From the IMG/VR virus record IMGVR_UViG_2671180724_000011: a stretch of DNA of 9,872 nt. The stretch is one strand, 5' to 3'. Origin of the DNA: a virus. Taxonomy: Duplodnaviria; Heunggongvirae; Uroviricota; Caudoviricetes. How positions within the stretch are numbered: position 1 is the stretch's first letter; each line of letters opens with the position of its first letter. Shown here one piece after another: positions 2,424 to 9,872 of this stretch. The position numbers and the translations under genes were made by a program. A model generated the notes under the pieces. It saw only the letters and a program-made list of their open reading frames with translations. It was not told where the DNA came from and made no database searches.

Positions 2424-3336
2424 TGTCACGACAGAAGATTTGGCAAGTGCGCTCGACGTGACAGAAGAGGTAATTGATTCAATTTTGCAGACGATGCAGG
2501 GGCGGGTACTTGATGGTGATTTAATCACTGGATGGGAAAAACGCCAGGTGCTTAAAGAGGACAACGGCAATATTTCGCAAACCGCAAAATCTCCGGCAGA
2601 GCGCAAGAGGGCGCAGCGTGAGAGGGAAAGAAAGCGGGAACAAAATGGCGATTGTCACGGCGCGTCACGAAATGTCACGCACATGTCACGACGAGTCACG
2701 ACAGATAAAGATACAGATAGAGATACAGATAAAGAAGATCAAAACACTATGGTCCATGGCGTAAAAAACGCCACGAACCATGTAGGGGATGTTCAGACCG
2801 TCACTCCTGGCCAGCCCGCAGGCACGACACCGGAAGCCGATTCAGCGTATGCGCTGAAAGCCGATTCGGGCGCTGTGCAGCAGGCGATGACCGCTGGGCC
2901 GGAGCAATCACACCAACTGCAGCAGCCTGAAGCCGATTCCGCCATTCAGCGGGAAGCCGATCGGGTAGTCCCGGAAAACACCGGGCAGCCTGTGGGACGA
3001 GTGGATTATCCGGATGTGTTCGAACAGGTCTGGCGGGAATACCCGTTACGAGCCGGGGCAAACCCGAAGAAATCCGCTTTCAGTGCCTGGAAGGCCAGAT
3101 TACGCGAGGGGGTGCCACCAGAGGCCATGCTGGATGGTGTAAGGCGTTACACAAGATACCTGGCTGCTACCGGGAAAACGGGAACGGAATTTGTTCAGCG
3201 AGCGACGACGTTTTTTGGACCGGACCGGAATTTTGAAAACCCCTGGTTGCTCCCGGTAAGCGGCACGAACAACCAGCGTTGTGTTAATCATATTTCTGAA
3301 CCGGACACCGAAATTCCGCCGGGATTCAGAGGGTAA
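2386..3336 (+). CDS. replication initiator protein, main body (316 codons from GTG at 2386; probably continuous with 2265-2423 via a frameshift)
   Basis: Long ORF whose frame is open from 2362; no convincing RBS at the GTG; contains both iteron clusters in the same frame, an Asp-rich hexamer-repeat stretch, and a C-terminal FEQVWREYPLRAGANPKKSAFSAWKARL-type segment seen in phage replication proteins. Confidence 0.65.
   Translation: MSASRNVTRGHIDVTTEDLASALDVTEEVIDSILQTMQGRVLDGDLITGWEKRQVLKEDNGNISQTAKSPAERKRAQRERERKREQNGDCHGASRNVTHMSRRVTTDKDTDRDTDKEDQNTMVHGVKNATNHVGDVQTVTPGQPAGTTPEADSAYALKADSGAVQQAMTAGPEQSHQLQQPEADSAIQREADRVVPENTGQPVGRVDYPDVFEQVWREYPLRAGANPKKSAFSAWKARLREGVPPEAMLDGVRRYTRYLAATGKTGTEFVQRATTFFGPDRNFENPWLLPVSGTNNQRCVNHISEPDTEIPPGFRG
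2394..2430. repeat. iteron cluster 1: four GTCAC(G/A) hexamers at 2394, 2404, 2414, 2425
   Basis: 10-11 bp phasing (one helical turn); about 45 bp near-identical to cluster 2. Confidence 0.7.
2654..2700. repeat. iteron cluster 2: five GTCACG hexamers at 2654, 2664, 2674, 2685, 2695; candidate origin of replication inside the initiator gene
   Basis: 10/10/11/10 bp phasing; immediately followed by AGATAN hexamer repeats; arrangement analogous to lambda ori inside gene O. Confidence 0.7.
2703..2732. repeat. five tandem AGATAN hexamers (AT-rich stretch adjacent to iterons; encodes a DKDTDRDTDK repeat)
   Basis: AGATA at 2703, 2709, 2715, 2721, 2727. Confidence 0.6.
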
Positions 3337-3373
3337 CAGATTTCAGGTCATGGGGTAATTTTCAGGAGGGCTT

Positions 3374-3649
3374 GTGGCAAAAGTTTTTACTCCCGAACTG
3401 CGGGAAGAAGTGAAGGCGCGCATTGTGGAACTGGTACGCAGAGATGGGCGAAAAACGCGTAAACAACTGGAAAATGAAACCGGGGCGACGAGACACCTGA
3501 TAGAAGTTCTGGTGAAAGAGCTGGTAGTTAGTGGCGCAGTATATGGTTCAGGACATGGAATATTTCCTTCGGAGCAGGCTCGTAAGGACTGGGGAAAAGC
3601 CCGCAAAAAAAATGTCGAGAGCGGCAGTGAAAAAGAAGAGCGACCCTGA
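3374..3649 (+). CDS. hypothetical protein (91 aa, GTG start), likely the N-terminal part of a gene interrupted at an A8 run
   Basis: AGGAGGG 4 nt upstream of GTG 3374; ORF stops shortly after the A8 homopolymer at 3605-3612. Confidence 0.5.
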   Translation: MAKVFTPELREEVKARIVELVRRDGRKTRKQLENETGATRHLIEVLVKELVVSGAVYGSGHGIFPSEQARKDWGKARKKNVESGSEKEERP

Positions 3650-3782
3650 CCTGATTTATTCATTGCTAGATGGCGAAATACGCCGTTACAACAGACGACA
3701 GAATATAATTTGTCGCGAGTGTCGTCAGAGCGAAGTTATGCAGCGCATACTGGAATTTTATCAGGGAAATGTTCGGTATTAA
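3612..3782 (+). CDS. hypothetical protein, C-terminal part (MSRAAVKKKSDPDLIYSLLDGEIRRYNRRQNIICRECRQSEVMQRILEFYQGNVRY); probably fused to 3374-3649 in an intact allele
   Basis: Other frame is open from 3531 and overlaps the 3374 ORF; removing one A from the A8 run joins the two frames into one ORF of about 136 aa. Confidence 0.4.
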   Translation: MSRAAVKKKSDPDLIYSLLDGEIRRYNRRQNIICRECRQSEVMQRILEFYQGNVRY

Positions 3783-3927
3783 TTGAAGTGACGAAATTAA
3801 AGAGCATTAGTTCAGATATTAATTGACACTTCGATGGCACAGGCCCAGACCTAGTCTGGTTGTCAGCTTTGAGCTAGGTGAACGTTGGTATCGTTAGTTT
3901 GTATTAATCAACGGAGAATAGGCCAAA

Positions 3928-3958
3928 TGACTTTTCTTTGCCTCTTTTAATTATAATT
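3928..3958 (+). promoter_or_regulatory. candidate promoter for the large cargo gene inside the AT-rich spacer (-10 TATAAT 3953-3958; weak -35 TGACTT 3928-3933)
   Basis: Consensus -10 hexamer; the -35 is weak and the spacer is about 19 nt, so this is tentative. Confidence 0.25.
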
Positions 3959-4025
3959 CAAGTTCAATTGATTACATTGAAGTACTAATGTGAGTCCGTC
4001 AAACAAATAGCTCAAGGAATAGGTC

Positions 4026-6824
4026 ATGTGGGGAAGTGAAAACAAACAAAATCTGGACGTACTGGATCCTGTGCAGTTGGTGCGTATCGAAGCGGTACAC
4101 CGGGGGTTCCTTTACCAGCATCTTTACGCTGTAGGCTGCTTACTTTTGGCGCAGAGGGCAGCTATGGACTCAGTAACTGTCGAGCTTGATGAGGATATTG
4201 AGCTGAAATCCAAACAGGAACGTCTCTACATTCAGGTTAAAACCCGTTCAAAACCTATTATGCCCAACGATGTGTCGGGGGCTCTGGAGCGATTTGTAAA
4301 GCTCAGAAATGAGCATACTTCGGCAAACCGCGAAGGGGTGGCTTCTTTTGTGATTATTGTAAACCAGGCGCCTGGACCGCTGCTTCAGAAGATGATTGAC
4401 GATAAAAAGCTTCCTTCTGATGTTCTTATTGTCTGGCCCCAGTCGACAGCTGGACGTCACCCGGCACTTCCGCCCGCATGGAGTACTCTGGCTGATGCGG
4501 CCACATGGTGTATCGCAGAAGCAGAAAAGCTGAAATTTTCACTATTGTCCCCAGAATCCTTGATTTGGAAGTTAGCAGGATTGGTTCAGCTTGCCGCCAC
4601 CGGAGGCGATACCAATGGACAACATACGTTTTTCACGGAAGAACTTACTGAACTATTTGAACAGTTGATCGTTCAGCTACAGGACTTTCCTGCACCACCA
4701 GCACTGTACCGCCCACAGAACGAAGAACCTTCTCTCACATCTGGTGAGCGGATCCGTATCCTTTGTGGACTCTCAGGTGCAGGCAAGACAGCTTGGGCCG
4801 CACAGGCCGCATTACACTCCACTGCACTTTGTGCTTATTACGACACCGGTGATCTTCCCGGTCCAGCTCTGGCCAGTACGCTGGTGCGCGAGATGGCTGC
4901 TAGATTTACAGCCCGTGACCAAGACGGTTTGCGCAGGATTTTGCTCCCCGGTGCCAGTGGTTTTGAGGCTCTTAGGAGTTTTGATACCTACCTGAAAGAG
5001 CAGGGTACCACCTTGGTGCTGGTTCTGGATAACGCCCATCGTGTACCTGCGGAAAATCTACTGGATGTTCTGAATGCAACTACACATATTCGTTTTGTGC
5101 TGTTGTGCCAGCCTCACGAAAACGTTCGCGAACTGGAGGTCATGACGGGGCTACAGCGCGAGGGCCTGCAGGGATGGAATCTCGATACGGTAGCTGTCGT
5201 TGTAAACGATATCGGAGGATTTGCCACCGCTATGGGATACGAGCAGCTACGGGCTTACACTGGTGGTCTTCCCCTGTATGTAGAGAGCGCCGCAAAAATC
5301 GCCGTTTCTGATTATGAGCGTAATGTCGATGCTCTGTGTGCTGAACTCCAGCAACAAACCCATACTGCGGAAACCGCCCAAGAAATTATTCTGTCACGTG
5401 TATTTCAGGGATTTGAATCACTACTTCAGAGCGCGCTGGCATTGTTCAGTCTCTCTGACGTAGGGCTGAGTCGCGAAGAGATTTCTACGCTCCTAATCAA
5501 TTCGCTGAACATTTCACCAAGCAGTGCTGCTTCTTTAATTAGGAAAATGCGCGCTACTGGCACTATTGAAATTTATGGAAACCAGACCCTGAAGGTACAT
5601 GATGCTGTCAGGGGGCTAGGACTGCAACATCTGGAACTGATGGATCAGGGTATATCGAACAAAGCGCTACTAGCGCTGAAAGACCTTTTAGTTGAAAGTC
5701 TTCATAATACCCGCAATACAAAACGGTTATCGTTGTTGACTCAACTTTATATTAAGCTCAATGATGTCACGACGTTGATCGAACTCTCAGGCCAAGAAAT
5801 GTTTTATGAGATGGGCGTGACGGTCGACATTCTTGCAAGCTTGGAGCGTGCTGCAACATCGGACTTATTGGGACCTGTTCATAAATTCTGGGCATTGGAT
5901 GGCCTTGTTTTCGTTGAGCTTAAAGACGGAATATCCGACCACATTGCTCAGAGGTTAAACATCATGGGAGCTTTACTTGCGGAGCACAAGTTCGGCTATC
6001 AAGAAGAGATGGCCTATGCAATGAAACGAATGTTATTTTCGGCAGAAAGCAATGATGCACGAGAAGTTCAAAAGCTGGCACAGGAAGTCCGCCCCCAACT
6101 CCCAGATGAAGAACATAAACGCATCTTTGACTACAACCATGCCATTGCACTCTGGAGATTAAAAAAACTCAAGGATGCTGAAACATTAAGCTGTAATGTT
6201 ATACAAGGGTACTATTCTTTATTTGGTATCACACCTGCTGATGTCATAGGAAAAAACGCCGACGCATTATGGAAAACTATTAATCATTCCGAAAATATGC
6301 AGGAACACTTTAAACATATGGCTGATGCTCTGGAGTTGCTGGCCAGAATTCGTGATGCGCAGGGAAAACTGTCACCATTACTGCGTATTCATTCGATGAA
6401 GTTCTACAATCTGGCCATGGCCCCGGAATCCATGGTCAGGGTGGGCCAAGATCTGGCGGATGAGTTTGTTGCCATAAAGGATTACGACGGTGCCAAGGAA
6501 GTCATGGAGCAACATGTCCTGCCGGTTGTCAATGAGGCAGGTCTAGTACATCGACTGATTCAGGTTCGAAGCCAATACGCAGTCATATTAGCACTATCGG
6601 GTCAGCATAAAGCAGCTGATGTCGAAATGCAGCGCCTTGCTCCCTATATCGAAGGCCTCACAGGTGTACAGCGTCAAGAAATCCAAAATCAATCAAATTA
6701 CATCGTACAGCTTGCCCATAAAGCAGCAAAGACTAAATTAACTGAAGTTTTTGGTGCGGTCGGCCGGAATGAACAATGCCCCTGTGGCTCGGGAATAAAG
6801 TACAAAAAATGTCACGGTGCCTGA
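4026..6824 (+). CDS. 932-aa multidomain P-loop NTPase: N-terminal restriction-endonuclease-like region, central Walker A/B NTPase (STAND/AAA+-like), helical C-terminal region, terminal SEC-C-type zinc motif; candidate antiphage defense protein
   Basis: ATG 4026 with AAGGA 7 nt upstream; uninterrupted 2799-nt ORF; Walker A GLSGAGKT (aa 248-255, nt 4767-4790); Walker B-like LVLVLDNAH (aa 330-338); N-terminal RGFLYQ...VELDEDIEL...IQVK (aa 26-72); C-terminal CPCGSGIKYKKCHG (nt 6777-6818). Confidence 0.9.
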   Translation: MWGSENKQNLDVLDPVQLVRIEAVHRGFLYQHLYAVGCLLLAQRAAMDSVTVELDEDIELKSKQERLYIQVKTRSKPIMPNDVSGALERFVKLRNEHTSANREGVASFVIIVNQAPGPLLQKMIDDKKLPSDVLIVWPQSTAGRHPALPPAWSTLADAATWCIAEAEKLKFSLLSPESLIWKLAGLVQLAATGGDTNGQHTFFTEELTELFEQLIVQLQDFPAPPALYRPQNEEPSLTSGERIRILCGLSGAGKTAWAAQAALHSTALCAYYDTGDLPGPALASTLVREMAARFTARDQDGLRRILLPGASGFEALRSFDTYLKEQGTTLVLVLDNAHRVPAENLLDVLNATTHIRFVLLCQPHENVRELEVMTGLQREGLQGWNLDTVAVVVNDIGGFATAMGYEQLRAYTGGLPLYVESAAKIAVSDYERNVDALCAELQQQTHTAETAQEIILSRVFQGFESLLQSALALFSLSDVGLSREEISTLLINSLNISPSSAASLIRKMRATGTIEIYGNQTLKVHDAVRGLGLQHLELMDQGISNKALLALKDLLVESLHNTRNTKRLSLLTQLYIKLNDVTTLIELSGQEMFYEMGVTVDILASLERAATSDLLGPVHKFWALDGLVFVELKDGISDHIAQRLNIMGALLAEHKFGYQEEMAYAMKRMLFSAESNDAREVQKLAQEVRPQLPDEEHKRIFDYNHAIALWRLKKLKDAETLSCNVIQGYYSLFGITPADVIGKNADALWKTINHSENMQEHFKHMADALELLARIRDAQGKLSPLLRIHSMKFYNLAMAPESMVRVGQDLADEFVAIKDYDGAKEVMEQHVLPVVNEAGLVHRLIQVRSQYAVILALSGQHKAADVEMQRLAPYIEGLTGVQRQEIQNQSNYIVQLAHKAAKTKLTEVFGAVGRNEQCPCGSGIKYKKCHGA

Positions 6825-7044
6825 GTCTTTGTACGACCATGCGGGCCTTATTGTCTTGCTATTGCTCTTATGGTTCGCCTTTCTGATTGATTTCATATTG
6901 GCGAGGTGACGGGAGTTAAGTAGAATGGCTGCGGGTGCTTGAGGCTATCTGTCTCAGGCATGAACACCAAAGGCAGATAGAGAAAAGCCCCAGTTAACAT
7001 TACGCGTCCTGCAAGACGCTTAACATTAATCTGAGGCTCAATCT

Positions 7045-7257
7045 ATGAACGGCAAATCTAGGTTAGCCTCTTACGTGCCGAAAGGCAAGGAGAAGCAGGC
7101 TATGAAGCAGCAAAAGGCGATGTTAATCGTCCTGATCGTCATCTGTTTAACCGTCATAGTGACGGCACTGGTAACGAGGAAAGACCTCTGCGAGGTACGA
7201 ATCCGAACCGGCCAGACGGAGGTCGCTGTCTTCACAGCTTACGAACCTGAGGAGTAA
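7045..7257 (+). CDS. mok-like in-frame upstream extension of hok (70 aa)
   Basis: ATG 7045 in frame with hok and sharing its stop, as I recall for chromosomal mok/hok pairs such as mokC/hokC. Confidence 0.45.
   Translation: MNGKSRLASYVPKGKEKQAMKQQKAMLIVLIVICLTVIVTALVTRKDLCEVRIRTGQTEVAVFTAYEPEE
7102..7257 (+). CDS. hokD: Hok/Gef-family type I toxin, HokD (RelF)-like, 51 aa
   Basis: MKQQKAMLIVLIVICLTVIVTALVTRKDLCEVRIRTGQTEVAVFTAYEPEE is near-identical to the HokD sequence as I remember it; single transmembrane helix and conserved C-terminal Cys/Tyr segment; stop TAA 7255-7257. Confidence 0.85.
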   Translation: MKQQKAMLIVLIVICLTVIVTALVTRKDLCEVRIRTGQTEVAVFTAYEPEE

Positions 7258-7327
7258 GAGACCAGGCGGGGGAGAAATCCCTCGCCACCTCTGATGTGTC
7301 AGGCATCCTCAATGCACCCGCACTTAA

Positions 7328-7352
7328 CCCGCTTCGGCGGGTTTTGTTTTTT
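7328..7352 (+). terminator. Rho-independent terminator after hok (CCCGC-TTCG-GCGGG followed by TTTTGTTTTTT)
   Basis: GC stem 7328-7332 / 7337-7341 with 4-nt loop and an 11-nt T-rich tract. Confidence 0.75.
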
Positions 7353-7424
7353 CCTGGCATTCTGGTTTACAATTCGCACGCCAGCCTGAACAACTGGCAC
7401 CTGCTGCGCCAGCAGAGACAACCG

Positions 7425-8076: not shown

Positions 8077-8087
8077 NNNNNNNNNNN
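8077..8087. other. run of 11 N (gap or masked bases)
   Basis: Literal n characters in the sequence. Confidence 1.
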
Positions 8088-8182
8088 CAGGCTTTTCAGC
8101 TTTTGCAGAAGAATAAACTCATCTACAATCTTGCGCGGGGCTGAACTCCCGCTGAGTAACACCGTGCCACCGGAGAAAACCG

Positions 8183-8461
8183 ATGGCACGCAACGTAAAA
8201 TATTACAATTCTGATAATTCGCCCGTTCTTGCCTGCACGCACGAGCGGTATTCTCACGCATTCAAGTCTGAATGGTTCCAACACCCTCCATGTACTGAAG
8301 AGCAGGCTGAATGGATAATTCAGTGTTACCGCAGGCGCGGATACGAGGTTAAGAAAGCCCTTAGTCTCGACTACCGTCACTGGATAATCTCCGTCAGGCT
8401 TCCTTACTCTGAACGCCCACCGCGTCCGTCTCGCACATTCCAGCAACGCATCTGGAGGTAA
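8183..8461 (+). CDS. small prophage protein, copy 2 (92 aa)
   Basis: ATG 8183 with GGAG 7 nt upstream; identical in protein sequence to copy 3 over its full length. Confidence 0.7.
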   Translation: MARNVKYYNSDNSPVLACTHERYSHAFKSEWFQHPPCTEEQAEWIIQCYRRRGYEVKKALSLDYRHWIISVRLPYSERPPRPSRTFQQRIWR

Positions 8462-8462
8462 C

Positions 8463-9076
8463 GTGCGGGTATTACTTCGACCTGTTCTGGTACCGGAACT
8501 CGGGCTGGTGATCGTTAAGCCGGGCCGTGAATCCATGCCGGTATTCCACAATACCCGGGTACTGGTGGAGCCGGAACCGAAAAGCATGCGTAATCTGCCG
8601 TCCGGGGTCGTTCCTGCCGTTCGCCAGCCGCTGGTGGAAGACAAAACATTGCTGCCGTTTTTCAGTAACGCACGGGTAATTCGTGCTGCTGGTGGTGCTG
8701 GTGCATTGTCTGACTGGCTGTTGTGCCATATTAAATCCTGCCAGTGGCCACACGGCGATTATCATCACAGCGAAACCGTCATTCACCGTTATGGTACCGG
8801 CGCAATGGTGTTGTGCTGGCACTGCGACAACCAGCTGCGTGACCAGACATCCGAATCACTCGGGCAACTTGCTCATCAAAACCTGTCAGCATGGATGATT
8901 GACGTCATCGGTCACGCAATAAGCGGTACGCAGGAGCGTGAATTATCTTTGGCTGAATTATCCTGGTGGGCGGTCCGCAATCAGGTGGCGGACGCGCTAC
9001 CGGAAGCGGTATTACGTCGTTCGCTGGGGTTGCGTGCGGAAAAAATCCGCTCAATGTACCGTGAAAGCGACATCGT
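8463..9076 (+). CDS. GTG-start protein, copy 2, truncated by an N-run after about 204 codons; possibly DUF968/YdfU-like
   Basis: Same coupled GTG start; extends about 80 codons beyond the point where copy 1 is cut; runs into Ns at 9077. Confidence 0.6.
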
Positions 9077-9087
9077 NNNNNNNNNNN
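9077..9087. other. run of 11 N (gap or masked bases)
   Basis: Literal n characters; exactly 1000 bp from the first N-run. Confidence 1.
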
Positions 9088-9182
9088 CAGGCTTTTCAGC
9101 TTTTGCAGAAGAATAAACTCATCTACAATCTTGCGCGGGGCTGAACTCCCGCTGAGTAACACCGTGCCACCGGAGAAAACCG

Positions 9183-9461
9183 ATGGCACGCAACGTAAAA
9201 TATTACAATTCTGATAATTCGCCCGTTCTTGCCTGCACGCACGAGCGGTATTCTCACGCATTCAAGTCTGAATGGTTCCAACACCCTCCATGTACTGAAG
9301 AGCAGGCTGAATGGATAATTCAGTGTTACCGCAGGCGCGGATACGAGGTTAAGAAAGCCCTTAGTCTCGACTACCGTCACTGGATAATCTCCGTCAGGCT
9401 TCCTTACTCTGAACGCCCACCGCGTCCGTCTCGCACATTCCAGCAACGCATCTGGAGGTAA
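9183..9461 (+). CDS. small prophage protein, copy 3 (92 aa)
   Basis: Exactly 1000 bp downstream of copy 2; identical protein sequence. Confidence 0.7.
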   Translation: MARNVKYYNSDNSPVLACTHERYSHAFKSEWFQHPPCTEEQAEWIIQCYRRRGYEVKKALSLDYRHWIISVRLPYSERPPRPSRTFQQRIWR

Positions 9462-9462
9462 C

Positions 9463-9872
9463 GTGCGGGTATTACTTCGACCTGTTCTGGTACCGGAACT
9501 CGGGCTGGTGATCGTTAAGCCGGGCCGTGAATCCATGCCAGTATTCCACAATACCCGGGTATTGATGGAGCCGGAACCGAAAAGCATGCGTAATCTGCCG
9601 TCCGGGGTCGTTCCTGCCGTTCGCCAGCCGCTGGAGGAAGACAAAACATTGCTGCCGTTTTTCAGTAACGCACGGGTGATTCGTGCTGCTGGTGGTGCTG
9701 GTGCATTGTCTGACTGGCTGTTGCGCCATATTAAATCCTGCCAGTGGCCACACGGCGATTATCATCACAGCGAAACCGTCATTCACCGTTATGGTACCGG
9801 CGCAATGGTGTTGTGCTGGCACTGCGACAACCAGTTGCGTGACCAGACCTCCGAATCACTCGAGCAACTTGC
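9463..9872 (+). CDS. GTG-start protein, copy 3, partial (runs off the window end); possibly DUF968/YdfU-like
   Basis: GTG 9463 with the same coupled context; no stop before the window end, so absent from the ORF track; a handful of substitutions relative to copy 2. Confidence 0.6.
   Translation, partial: MRVLLRPVLVPELGLVIVKPGRESMPVFHNTRVLMEPEPKSMRNLPSGVVPAVRQPLEEDKTLLPFFSNARVIRAAGGAGALSDWLLRHIKSCQWPHGDYHHSETVIHRYGTGAMVLCWHCDNQLRDQTSESLEQL

Follow-up and report, generated by a model that had tools for sequence, protein, structure and literature searches.

A variable slot between a Ren-like gene and hok/sok in Qin-type prophages and its cargo, a probable single-gene Avs-like STAND nuclease

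The DNA analysed here is a 9,872-nucleotide stretch of a Caudoviricetes record (IMG/VR IMGVR_UViG_2671180724_000011), hereafter the window, which represents the early region of a lambdoid prophage of the Qin/DicB type and carries, between a Ren-like DUF977 gene and the hok/sok locus, an intact gene for a protein of 932 amino acids (aa) (Table 1). The complete-genome copy of the prophage is sited at tRNA-Ser/mtfA, and because positions 3300-7400 are 100% identical in the complete genome NZ_CP148579.1, the region is real and not an assembly artefact. According to the PGAP annotation, the gene order runs from dicB, ydfC, ydfB, DUF1391 (ydfA), the repressor, a YdaS-like cro, YdaT, the replication initiator and a frameshifted DUF977 gene on the left to the 932-aa “SEC-C metal-binding domain-containing protein”, hokD, a small hypothetical protein, DUF968 (ydfU-like), RusA and Q on the right. 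A preliminary description of this DNA had likened the order to that of the Qin prophage of Escherichia coli K-12 and had placed a relB-relE-hokD arrangement there; both are borne out by the MG1655 annotation (dicB-dicF-ydfC-ydfB-ydfA-dicA / dicC-ydfX-ydfW-flxA-ydfV-relB-relE-hokD-rem-ydfU-ydfT), and the parallel also by protein identities of 94-100% for YdfA/B/C, 98% for HokD and 80% for DUF968 versus YdfU. In the comparison with K-12 proteins the window gene at the rem position showed no homology to Rem, and nucleotide similarity between the window and K-12 is limited to positions 1-755 and 7088 onward. The AT-rich spacer of about 245 bp, described earlier as lying together with the 932-aa gene upstream of mok/hok, was measured at 243 bp (3783-4025) with 37% GC.

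Table 1. Features of the slot and its flanks in the window (positions count from the first letter of the 9,872-nucleotide stretch).
Feature	Position	Strand	Evidence
DUF977 / Ren-like gene (left flank)	3374..3782	+	Pfam DUF977 on both half-ORFs (open reading frames)
Conserved left-junction element, 3' of the DUF977 stop	3783..3877	+	71-83% identity to 22 IMG/VR loci
Cargo-specific AT-rich leader of the 932-aa gene	3878..4025	+	sequence, 34% GC
932-aa cargo gene	4026..6824	+	intact ORF, AAGGA ribosome-binding site
3' tail of the cassette; right boundary 6847/6848	6825..6847	+	homology to the L131 copy ends at 6848
Remnant of a small hydrophobic ORF (13 codons + stop)	6849..6890	+	junction alignment, tblastn
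hok promoter-like site TTGGCG-17-TAGAAT	6898..6926	+	promoter scan
hok mRNA leader / sok antisense RNA region, intact	6933..7107	+	Rfam RF01794
mok ORF with hokD at 7102-7257 (right flank of the slot)	7045..7257	+	Pfam HOK_GEF, PGAP name hokD

To place the 932-aa gene among related prophages, we searched 5,426 complete E. coli genomes with positions 3300-7400 of the window. Some part of the query was matched in 4,976 of them, mostly hokD, and the gene itself was present in 16, always with the same flanking genes, and in one genome disrupted by ISEc52. It was absent from all of a second set of loci, the first 120 exact matches in IMG/VR to one hokD 29-mer. DUF977 lies upstream of hokD in 71 of these 120 loci, at 0.9 to 6.2 kb, and together with the window and the identical complete-genome copy (locus L001) they provide 73 slot loci, bounded by DUF977 at 70-90% nucleotide identity and by hok/sok at 94-100%; the same flanks are found in complete genomes. 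Clustered at 80% reciprocal coverage, the intervening DNA of the 73 loci falls into 49 unrelated clusters, the largest comprising six loci (Simpson diversity ~0.97), whereas the control interval from the hok stop to the DUF968 start, taken from the same locus set, gives 11 clusters from 89 loci, with 75 of these loci in just two clusters (diversity ~0.62). The variability of the slot is far more than expected by chance. The slot is situated where the nin-equivalent region begins, and its borders are the Ren-like DUF977 gene with an element of about 95 nt on the left and hok/sok on the right.

The earlier suggestion of a cargo hotspot that varies between related prophages is thus supported, with the restriction that only about 10 of the 49 cargo types are recognisable as defence. 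The catalogue of what stands between the replication module and hokD comprises dozens of unrelated cargos, members of validated defence families included, and in other complete genomes PGAP annotates in the slot an FRG-domain protein, an ImmA/IrrE plus helix-turn-helix (HTH) protein, QueH, DUF7167 with several hypotheticals, and unnamed genes. It could be argued that the 932-aa gene is conserved core of the prophage lineage and that K-12 differs through its own decay, given the ydfX and ydfW remnants and the truncated hok/sok of its Qin prophage. The distribution of the gene over the two sets and the 49 alternative contents between the same flanks refute this explanation, to which we assign practically no probability. 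The composition comparison that had been proposed for recognising the insert did not distinguish it: its GC content (48.0%) is not marked against the flanks (48.3% and 53.2%), and codon usage, at a relative synonymous codon usage correlation of r = 0.37 from small samples, carries no useful signal.

At the left border, the junction element takes up the ~95-100 nt after the DUF977 stop, contains a TTGACA box and terminates in a short hairpin. Its identity to the 22 IMG/VR loci ends at spacer position ~89-96, and the cargo diverges directly after the hairpin. The hairpin has the form GTCCGCTTT-N6-AGAGCGGAC, and its pairing is kept in the stem variants GTCTGCTTT/AAAGCAGAT and CTGCTC/GAGCAG; it folds into a 9-bp stem in other loci (the element occurs in L042, L016, L078 and others) and is degenerate in the window, with modest folding z-scores of -0.7 to -2.6. 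It might act as an insulator, a terminator or a recombination site. No Rfam match was obtained in the spacer or the left-junction element, and the idea that the hairpin contains a LexA box was discarded because of its wrong spacing. The cargo leader that follows holds a TATAAT at ~3951-3956 besides the ribosome-binding site, and from this sequence we presume that the 932-aa gene has its own promoter within the leader. A terminator scan found none after the gene.

At the right border, as at the left, the breakpoints are discrete: homology between other loci and the window resumes at 6848, 6868, 6910-6914 or 6920, and the dominant breakpoint in a pairwise histogram over all locus pairs is 6910-6929, inside the hok promoter. 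Just upstream of this promoter, tblastn found a small hydrophobic ORF of about 29 aa intact in 33 IMG/VR loci (VLVLKCALAIAAVMAIYCLAVVLMDRLSD; divergent variant LAMEGALAVIAVVGVYCLVVFLMDRLGN), e.g. in L042, L015 and L066, where it lies ~420 nt upstream of the hok 29-mer. The protein is conserved across divergent DNA, and the ORF could specify a further small peptide of the membrane or toxin type. Of this ORF the window keeps no more than the final 13 codons, so the right end of the cassette cut into it. The extent of the cassette is further set by a second copy of the gene, 92% identical, which resides in an island outside prophages (L131), in the order P4-type integrase, gene, type I restriction-modification (R-M) system. 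The sequence common to this copy and the window is exactly 3845-6848; the mobile unit is therefore about 3 kb and comprises leader, gene and a 23-nt tail. A related hairpin lies 5' of the gene in this island (L131 1990-2040).

The preliminary description had further held that the cargo fills the position taken by relBE in K-12. This is correct at the level of gene order, as seen in the SC418 prophage, which resides at the true Qin site. It adjoins rspB, has an integrase 99.4% identical to that of Qin and carries cspB/F/I; it also has in common with Qin exo-dicB, hokD, ydfU-ydfT, cspF/B and ess-ydfR-rrrQ (95-98%). In SC418 the 932-aa gene follows the replication module and precedes hokD, the place that belongs to ydfX-ydfW-flxA-ydfV-relBE in K-12. 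Furthermore, a 6.7-kb block from YdaT to DUF968, with the replication genes, the cargo and hok, is 97.6% identical between SC418 and the mtfA-site prophage, which differs in immunity, integrase and late genes, and the presence of this block at two attachment sites is direct evidence of modular exchange.

At the nucleotide junction the relBE claim does not hold. The K-12-type junction falls at the window equivalent of 7088-7093, a point within mok that immediately precedes the start codon of hok; the cassette end at 6847 lies about 240 bp further left. In one locus (L049) the 5' half of hok/sok (6914-7103) is kept 3.3 kb upstream, with an insertion sequence (IS), flxA, ydfV, relB and relE standing before the 3' half, and the two halves overlap by 6-16 nt at the insertion point; in two others (L097, L107) only a 1.1-kb IS occupies the equivalent of 7088-7093. 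The severed halves and these IS insertions indicate that relBE arrived by insertion into hok/sok. In K-12 (L002) the 5' half is wholly gone, the insertion having removed the hok promoter, the mok start and sok. The window encodes no homologue of either RelB or RelE; upstream of hokD, tblastn detected such homologues in K-12 and in only 4 of the 120 IMG/VR loci. Thus, the K-12 relBE-hokD arrangement and the present cassette share the same gene-order position, from the remains of the replication module to hokD, and an accessory cargo, in K-12 a toxin-antitoxin pair, whereas relBE lies with flxA-ydfV inside hok/sok and the 932-aa cassette stops short of that locus, at 6847, and does not disrupt it. 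In the window the locus is complete, with HOK_GEF at E 1e-22, a mok frame overlapping hok, and the sok model RF01794 matched over its whole length (1-157) at 110 bits against a gathering score of 59. The DUF977 gene on the other side is frameshifted in the window by an extra A (A8 versus A7 at ~3605-3612 in alignment to intact copies), which PGAP also marks as frameshifted, and the intact SC418 copy matches PHROG 142, “Ren-like exclusion protein”, at E 5e-39.

To obtain insight into what the slot carries, the ORFs of the 49 cluster representatives were grouped into 107 protein families, and those 81 representatives that reach 95 aa or more (the 932-aa protein excluded) were scanned as linker-joined polyproteins against Pfam and PADLOC. 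Matches to defence systems or candidates were obtained for Kiwa (KwaA and KwaB in L016, E 3e-100 and 3e-158), PD-T7-1 (L042, E 8e-157), Rst_3HP (Hp1-3 in L003, PADLOC Hp1 E 3.5e-40, Hp2 and Hp3 E ~6e-10), a CBASS-type cyclase with SMODS domain (L015, E 5e-143), an FRG protein corresponding to PDC-S15 (L066, E 2e-98), a DUF7380/DUF4209 protein corresponding to PDC-S39 (L078, E 1e-101) and a gop-beta-cll-like pair of beta (Beta_protein / PD-Lambda-2_C, E 2e-39) and cll (E 4e-27) in L019, together with PADLOC matches for a C5 methylase with an OLD/PtuA-like ATPase (L117) and for a SMEK-domain protein (L044). The Kiwa, PD-T7-1 and Rst_3HP families are validated as defence in the literature, and the slot copies are members of these families by sequence. 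Other contents are non-defence or without assignment, namely a NUDIX + HAD pair and a 6.2-kb block that encodes a BCCT transporter, DUF2254 and a Mrr-like nuclease, or consist of IS elements and small nin-type phage ORFs (DUF4406, Ead/Ea22, DUF551, HNH, orphan methylase). With about 10 of 49 cargo types matching PADLOC defence systems or candidates, the slot is mixed and not purely defensive.

The commonest single occupant is QueH (epoxyqueuosine reductase), found in the IMG/VR loci L068, L022, L016, L105, L007 and L116 and once alongside Kiwa. This is an odd gene for an accessory site of a prophage and may point to a link with queuosine or 7-deazaguanine metabolism. Several sizeable cargo genes have no PADLOC match and mostly no Pfam match: one of 484 aa in L080, a pair of 365 aa and 234 aa on the minus strand in L095, a DUF5677 gene of 345 aa in L023, a pair of 310 aa and 184 aa in L024 and one of 298 aa in L045. 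Large unmatched genes of the slot are candidates for defence genes.

This mixture can also be read as ordinary mosaicism of the nin region, the dispensable and highly mosaic stretch from the replication genes to Q that is common to lambdoid phages, in which the 932-aa gene would be one more “moron” with no special link to defence. The left flank is Ren-like, as expected where the lambda nin-equivalent region begins, many of the cargos are QueH or small phage ORFs of the kinds named above, and hok loci overall are not enriched near defence systems (bioRxiv 10.1101/2025.08.07.668861). We nevertheless regard mosaicism without a defence link as unlikely, since at least 10 of the 49 cargo types are known or candidate defence systems, several with E < 1e-100, their rate would, as a rough estimate, lie far above that of a typical gene set, and the 932-aa protein has a defence-type architecture and defence-island locations elsewhere.

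The domains of the 932-aa protein recognised by Pfam are Cap4_nuclease (aa 25-77), AAA_22 (aa 239-364) and SEC-C (aa 914-931). Taken together with the AlphaFold2 model (mean predicted local distance difference test score, pLDDT, 81.9), the architecture consists of a Cap4-like PD-(D/E)xK nuclease (aa ~15-200), a STAND NTPase with winged helix (aa ~239-540), a TPR-like helical array (aa ~541-910; all-helical at aa 541-910 with pLDDT mostly 80-95) and the SEC-C zinc motif. The top structural matches are STAND and NLR proteins; the N-terminus matches Cap4, LmuA and HamA, and the TPR region matches LGN, kinesin light chain and Rap. In an alignment of 78 homologues (49-92% identity) the nuclease residues E53, D55, D57, E59, Q70 and K72, the Walker A motif G248-x2-G251-x-G253-K254-T255 with D335-N336, and the zinc ligands C918, C920, C929 and H930 are all invariant. 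Full-length homologues form at least 120 clusters with 49-99% identity, nearly all of 927-944 aa, in Enterobacterales, Vibrio, Shewanella, Alteromonas, Pseudomonas and a few Betaproteobacteria.

Sequence searches gave little beyond the C-terminal tail. Sequence searches of the PDB, run with the protein itself and with the 78-sequence profile, matched the SEC-C motif only, NCBIfam returned only families with a SEC-C tail plus a sub-threshold DUF4297, and no PHROG family was matched beyond the tail. In 50,697 phage records there were only two distant hits. The lack of a PHROG family and the two distant phage relatives indicate that the gene is bacterial defence-island cargo picked up by the prophage. 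No paper was found that names the accession WP_000264572 or that links SEC-C, Cap4 and STAND for this protein family. An assignment as a Lamassu (LmuA-LmuB) or CBASS Cap4 effector was rejected, as no LmuB/SMC partner, SAVED domain or cyclase operon adjoins the gene; the nuclease differs from LmuA and from CBASS Cap4 in being fused to a STAND-TPR module.

The neighbourhoods of the homologues, which lie in defence islands in five other genera, are those of defence genes. In Yersinia enterocolitica, Vibrio cholerae and Enterobacter hormaechei (L123, L124, L132-L135) the homologue directly adjoins Gabija (GajA/GajB; OLD-TOPRIM ATPase and UvrD helicase), with AbiH, PIN, AAA_13, TIR/SEFIR or DUF5677 genes nearby, and in Pseudomonas (L125-L128) an AbiH gene lies immediately downstream of it on a metal-resistance element. 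The recurrent pairing with Gabija and AbiH may reflect a co-transferred island or a functional link. A connection to “type II Gabija” was considered in view of the adjoining Gabija genes and was rejected, because GajC is MazF-like and the gene stands alone in the window. The same neighbourhoods bear on the explanation that the protein serves the biology of the phage itself, for example as a STAND regulator of the MalT kind, as an NTPase of replication or recombination or as a nuclease for host takeover. In its favour one could cite that the gene immediately follows the replication module on the same strand. The homologues are chromosomal or on islands of the integrative and conjugative element type beside Gabija, AbiH and R-M genes, not in phages; ~99.7% of E. 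coli genomes and nearly all sequenced phages lack the gene; and the protein has no DNA-binding HTH domain and begins with a Cap4/LmuA/HamA-like nuclease whose catalytic residues are invariant. A role in the phage's own biology is thus highly improbable.

Taking the slot, the borders and the protein together, we consider it probable that 3878-6847 is a single-gene cassette in a recombination-prone slot of Qin-type prophages and that its cargo is a stand-alone, Avs-like antiviral STAND protein. Cassettes would be exchanged between co-resident or superinfecting lambdoid phages via recombination in the conserved flanks, and new ones might enter through illegitimate or one-sided homology events, here with a right end that cuts the small ORF. 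In the lysogen the gene would be expressed from the AT-rich leader. By analogy with Avs3, Avs4 and Avs7, the C-terminal TPR array would bind a phage-derived protein, upon which the ATP-bound STAND module would oligomerise and gather the N-terminal Cap4-like PD-(D/E)xK nuclease domains; these would cut double-stranded DNA and abort the infection, and host and prophage would be protected from other phages.

Several observations weigh against this proposal or limit it. The antiviral function is predicted from the likeness to the three Avs proteins just named. The Walker B motif reads hhhhD-N (window 5028-5033, aa 335-336) where D-D/E would be usual, which suggests that the protein binds ATP but may hydrolyse it only weakly. 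The PADLOC-DB 2.0 models (2023) gave no Avs hit at E values up to 0.01, and so the protein is not one of Avs1-5; they returned a weak N-terminal match to LmuA (E 5e-7). A scan for consensus sigma-70 promoters found none in front of the gene, and its expression in the lysogen is therefore something we infer. About 39 of the 49 cargo clusters are not recognisable defence genes, the 120 IMG/VR loci are a non-random sample, and in the survey of hok loci mentioned above DefenseFinder systems were not enriched within 20 kb (12% vs 9.4%).

Prophage defence hotspots and Avs-like STAND nucleases are both already established, and the present case adds an example to both. The closest counterparts of the slot are the hotspots of P2-like prophages and P4-like satellites (Rousset et al. 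2022, PMC9122126; Vassallo et al. 2022, PMC9519451), where conserved phage genes likewise flank a short variable interval rich in known and unknown anti-phage systems; Rst_3HP, gop-beta-cll, PD-T7-1 and PD-Lambda-2 components, first found there, recur in the present slot. The present backbone, in contrast, is lambdoid of the Qin/DicB type with a Ren-like DUF977 gene and hok/sok as flanks, and the content is more mixed, with many small nin-type ORFs and QueH. No paper describing the DUF977-hok/sok slot was found in the literature that could be searched. For the protein, the nearest relatives in design are SeAvs3 and SeAvs7 (Lee et al. 2026, PMC13581612), where one chain likewise combines a Cap4-like PD-(D/E)xK nuclease at the N-terminus, a STAND NTPase in the middle and a TPR-like sensor at the C-terminus; that paper counts at least 90 structurally distinct defence-associated STAND families, some of them prophage-encoded, and 198 defence-associated STAND clades. 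Defence islands and prophages are the common genomic setting. The present protein differs in its length (932 aa versus 2,028 aa for SeAvs3), in the additional C-terminal SEC-C zinc motif and the D-N of its Walker B, and in having no PADLOC match to Avs1-5, the comparison extending to the Avs1-5 models only.

In lambda, ren and the nin region lie directly after the replication genes, are non-essential and are mosaic between lambdoid phages. The present region likewise comes directly after the replication genes and begins with a Ren-like gene (PHROG 142); it differs in containing hok/sok and in having, upstream of that locus, large defence-type genes and not only small nin ORFs. Further to the right, the window has two runs of 11 N (8077-8087 and 9077-9087), exactly 1,000 bases apart, and after each (8166-9872) follows a 93-95% identical paralogous copy of the rem-position gene with the 5' part of DUF968. 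The duplicated stretch corresponds to L001 13109-14019 and is single-copy in the complete genome; these duplications resemble variants of a repeat that were scaffolded or collapsed more than a genuine tandem triplication.

The 932-aa protein might, moreover, found an uncharacterised, compact, single-gene Avs-like family, set apart from Avs1-5 by PADLOC, that is spread over the Gammaproteobacteria and moves as a cassette of about 3 kb with defined ends. We put this forward tentatively, as a possibility with the odds against it; the prophage slot and the unrelated integrase/R-M island have the same right end at 6848, and in both a short hairpin-containing element lies at the 5' border. If the ends are indeed defined, capture at the hotspot would be guided by the hairpin element rather than by chance. 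The SEC-C tail of SecA binds SecB and ribosomes, and if the family is new, such a tail could give a STAND sensor a further input or a new localisation.

The severed hok/sok halves clarify the origin of the textbook relBE-hokD arrangement of K-12 as an insertion into an ancestral hok/sok locus. The slot itself is delimited to the base, from the Ren-like gene with its conserved element to the hok promoter, and could be mined for new anti-phage genes in the manner of the P2 and P4 hotspots. With the 932-aa protein, a compact single-gene STAND nuclease is nominated that is conserved at this size in Enterobacterales, Vibrio, Shewanella and Pseudomonas.

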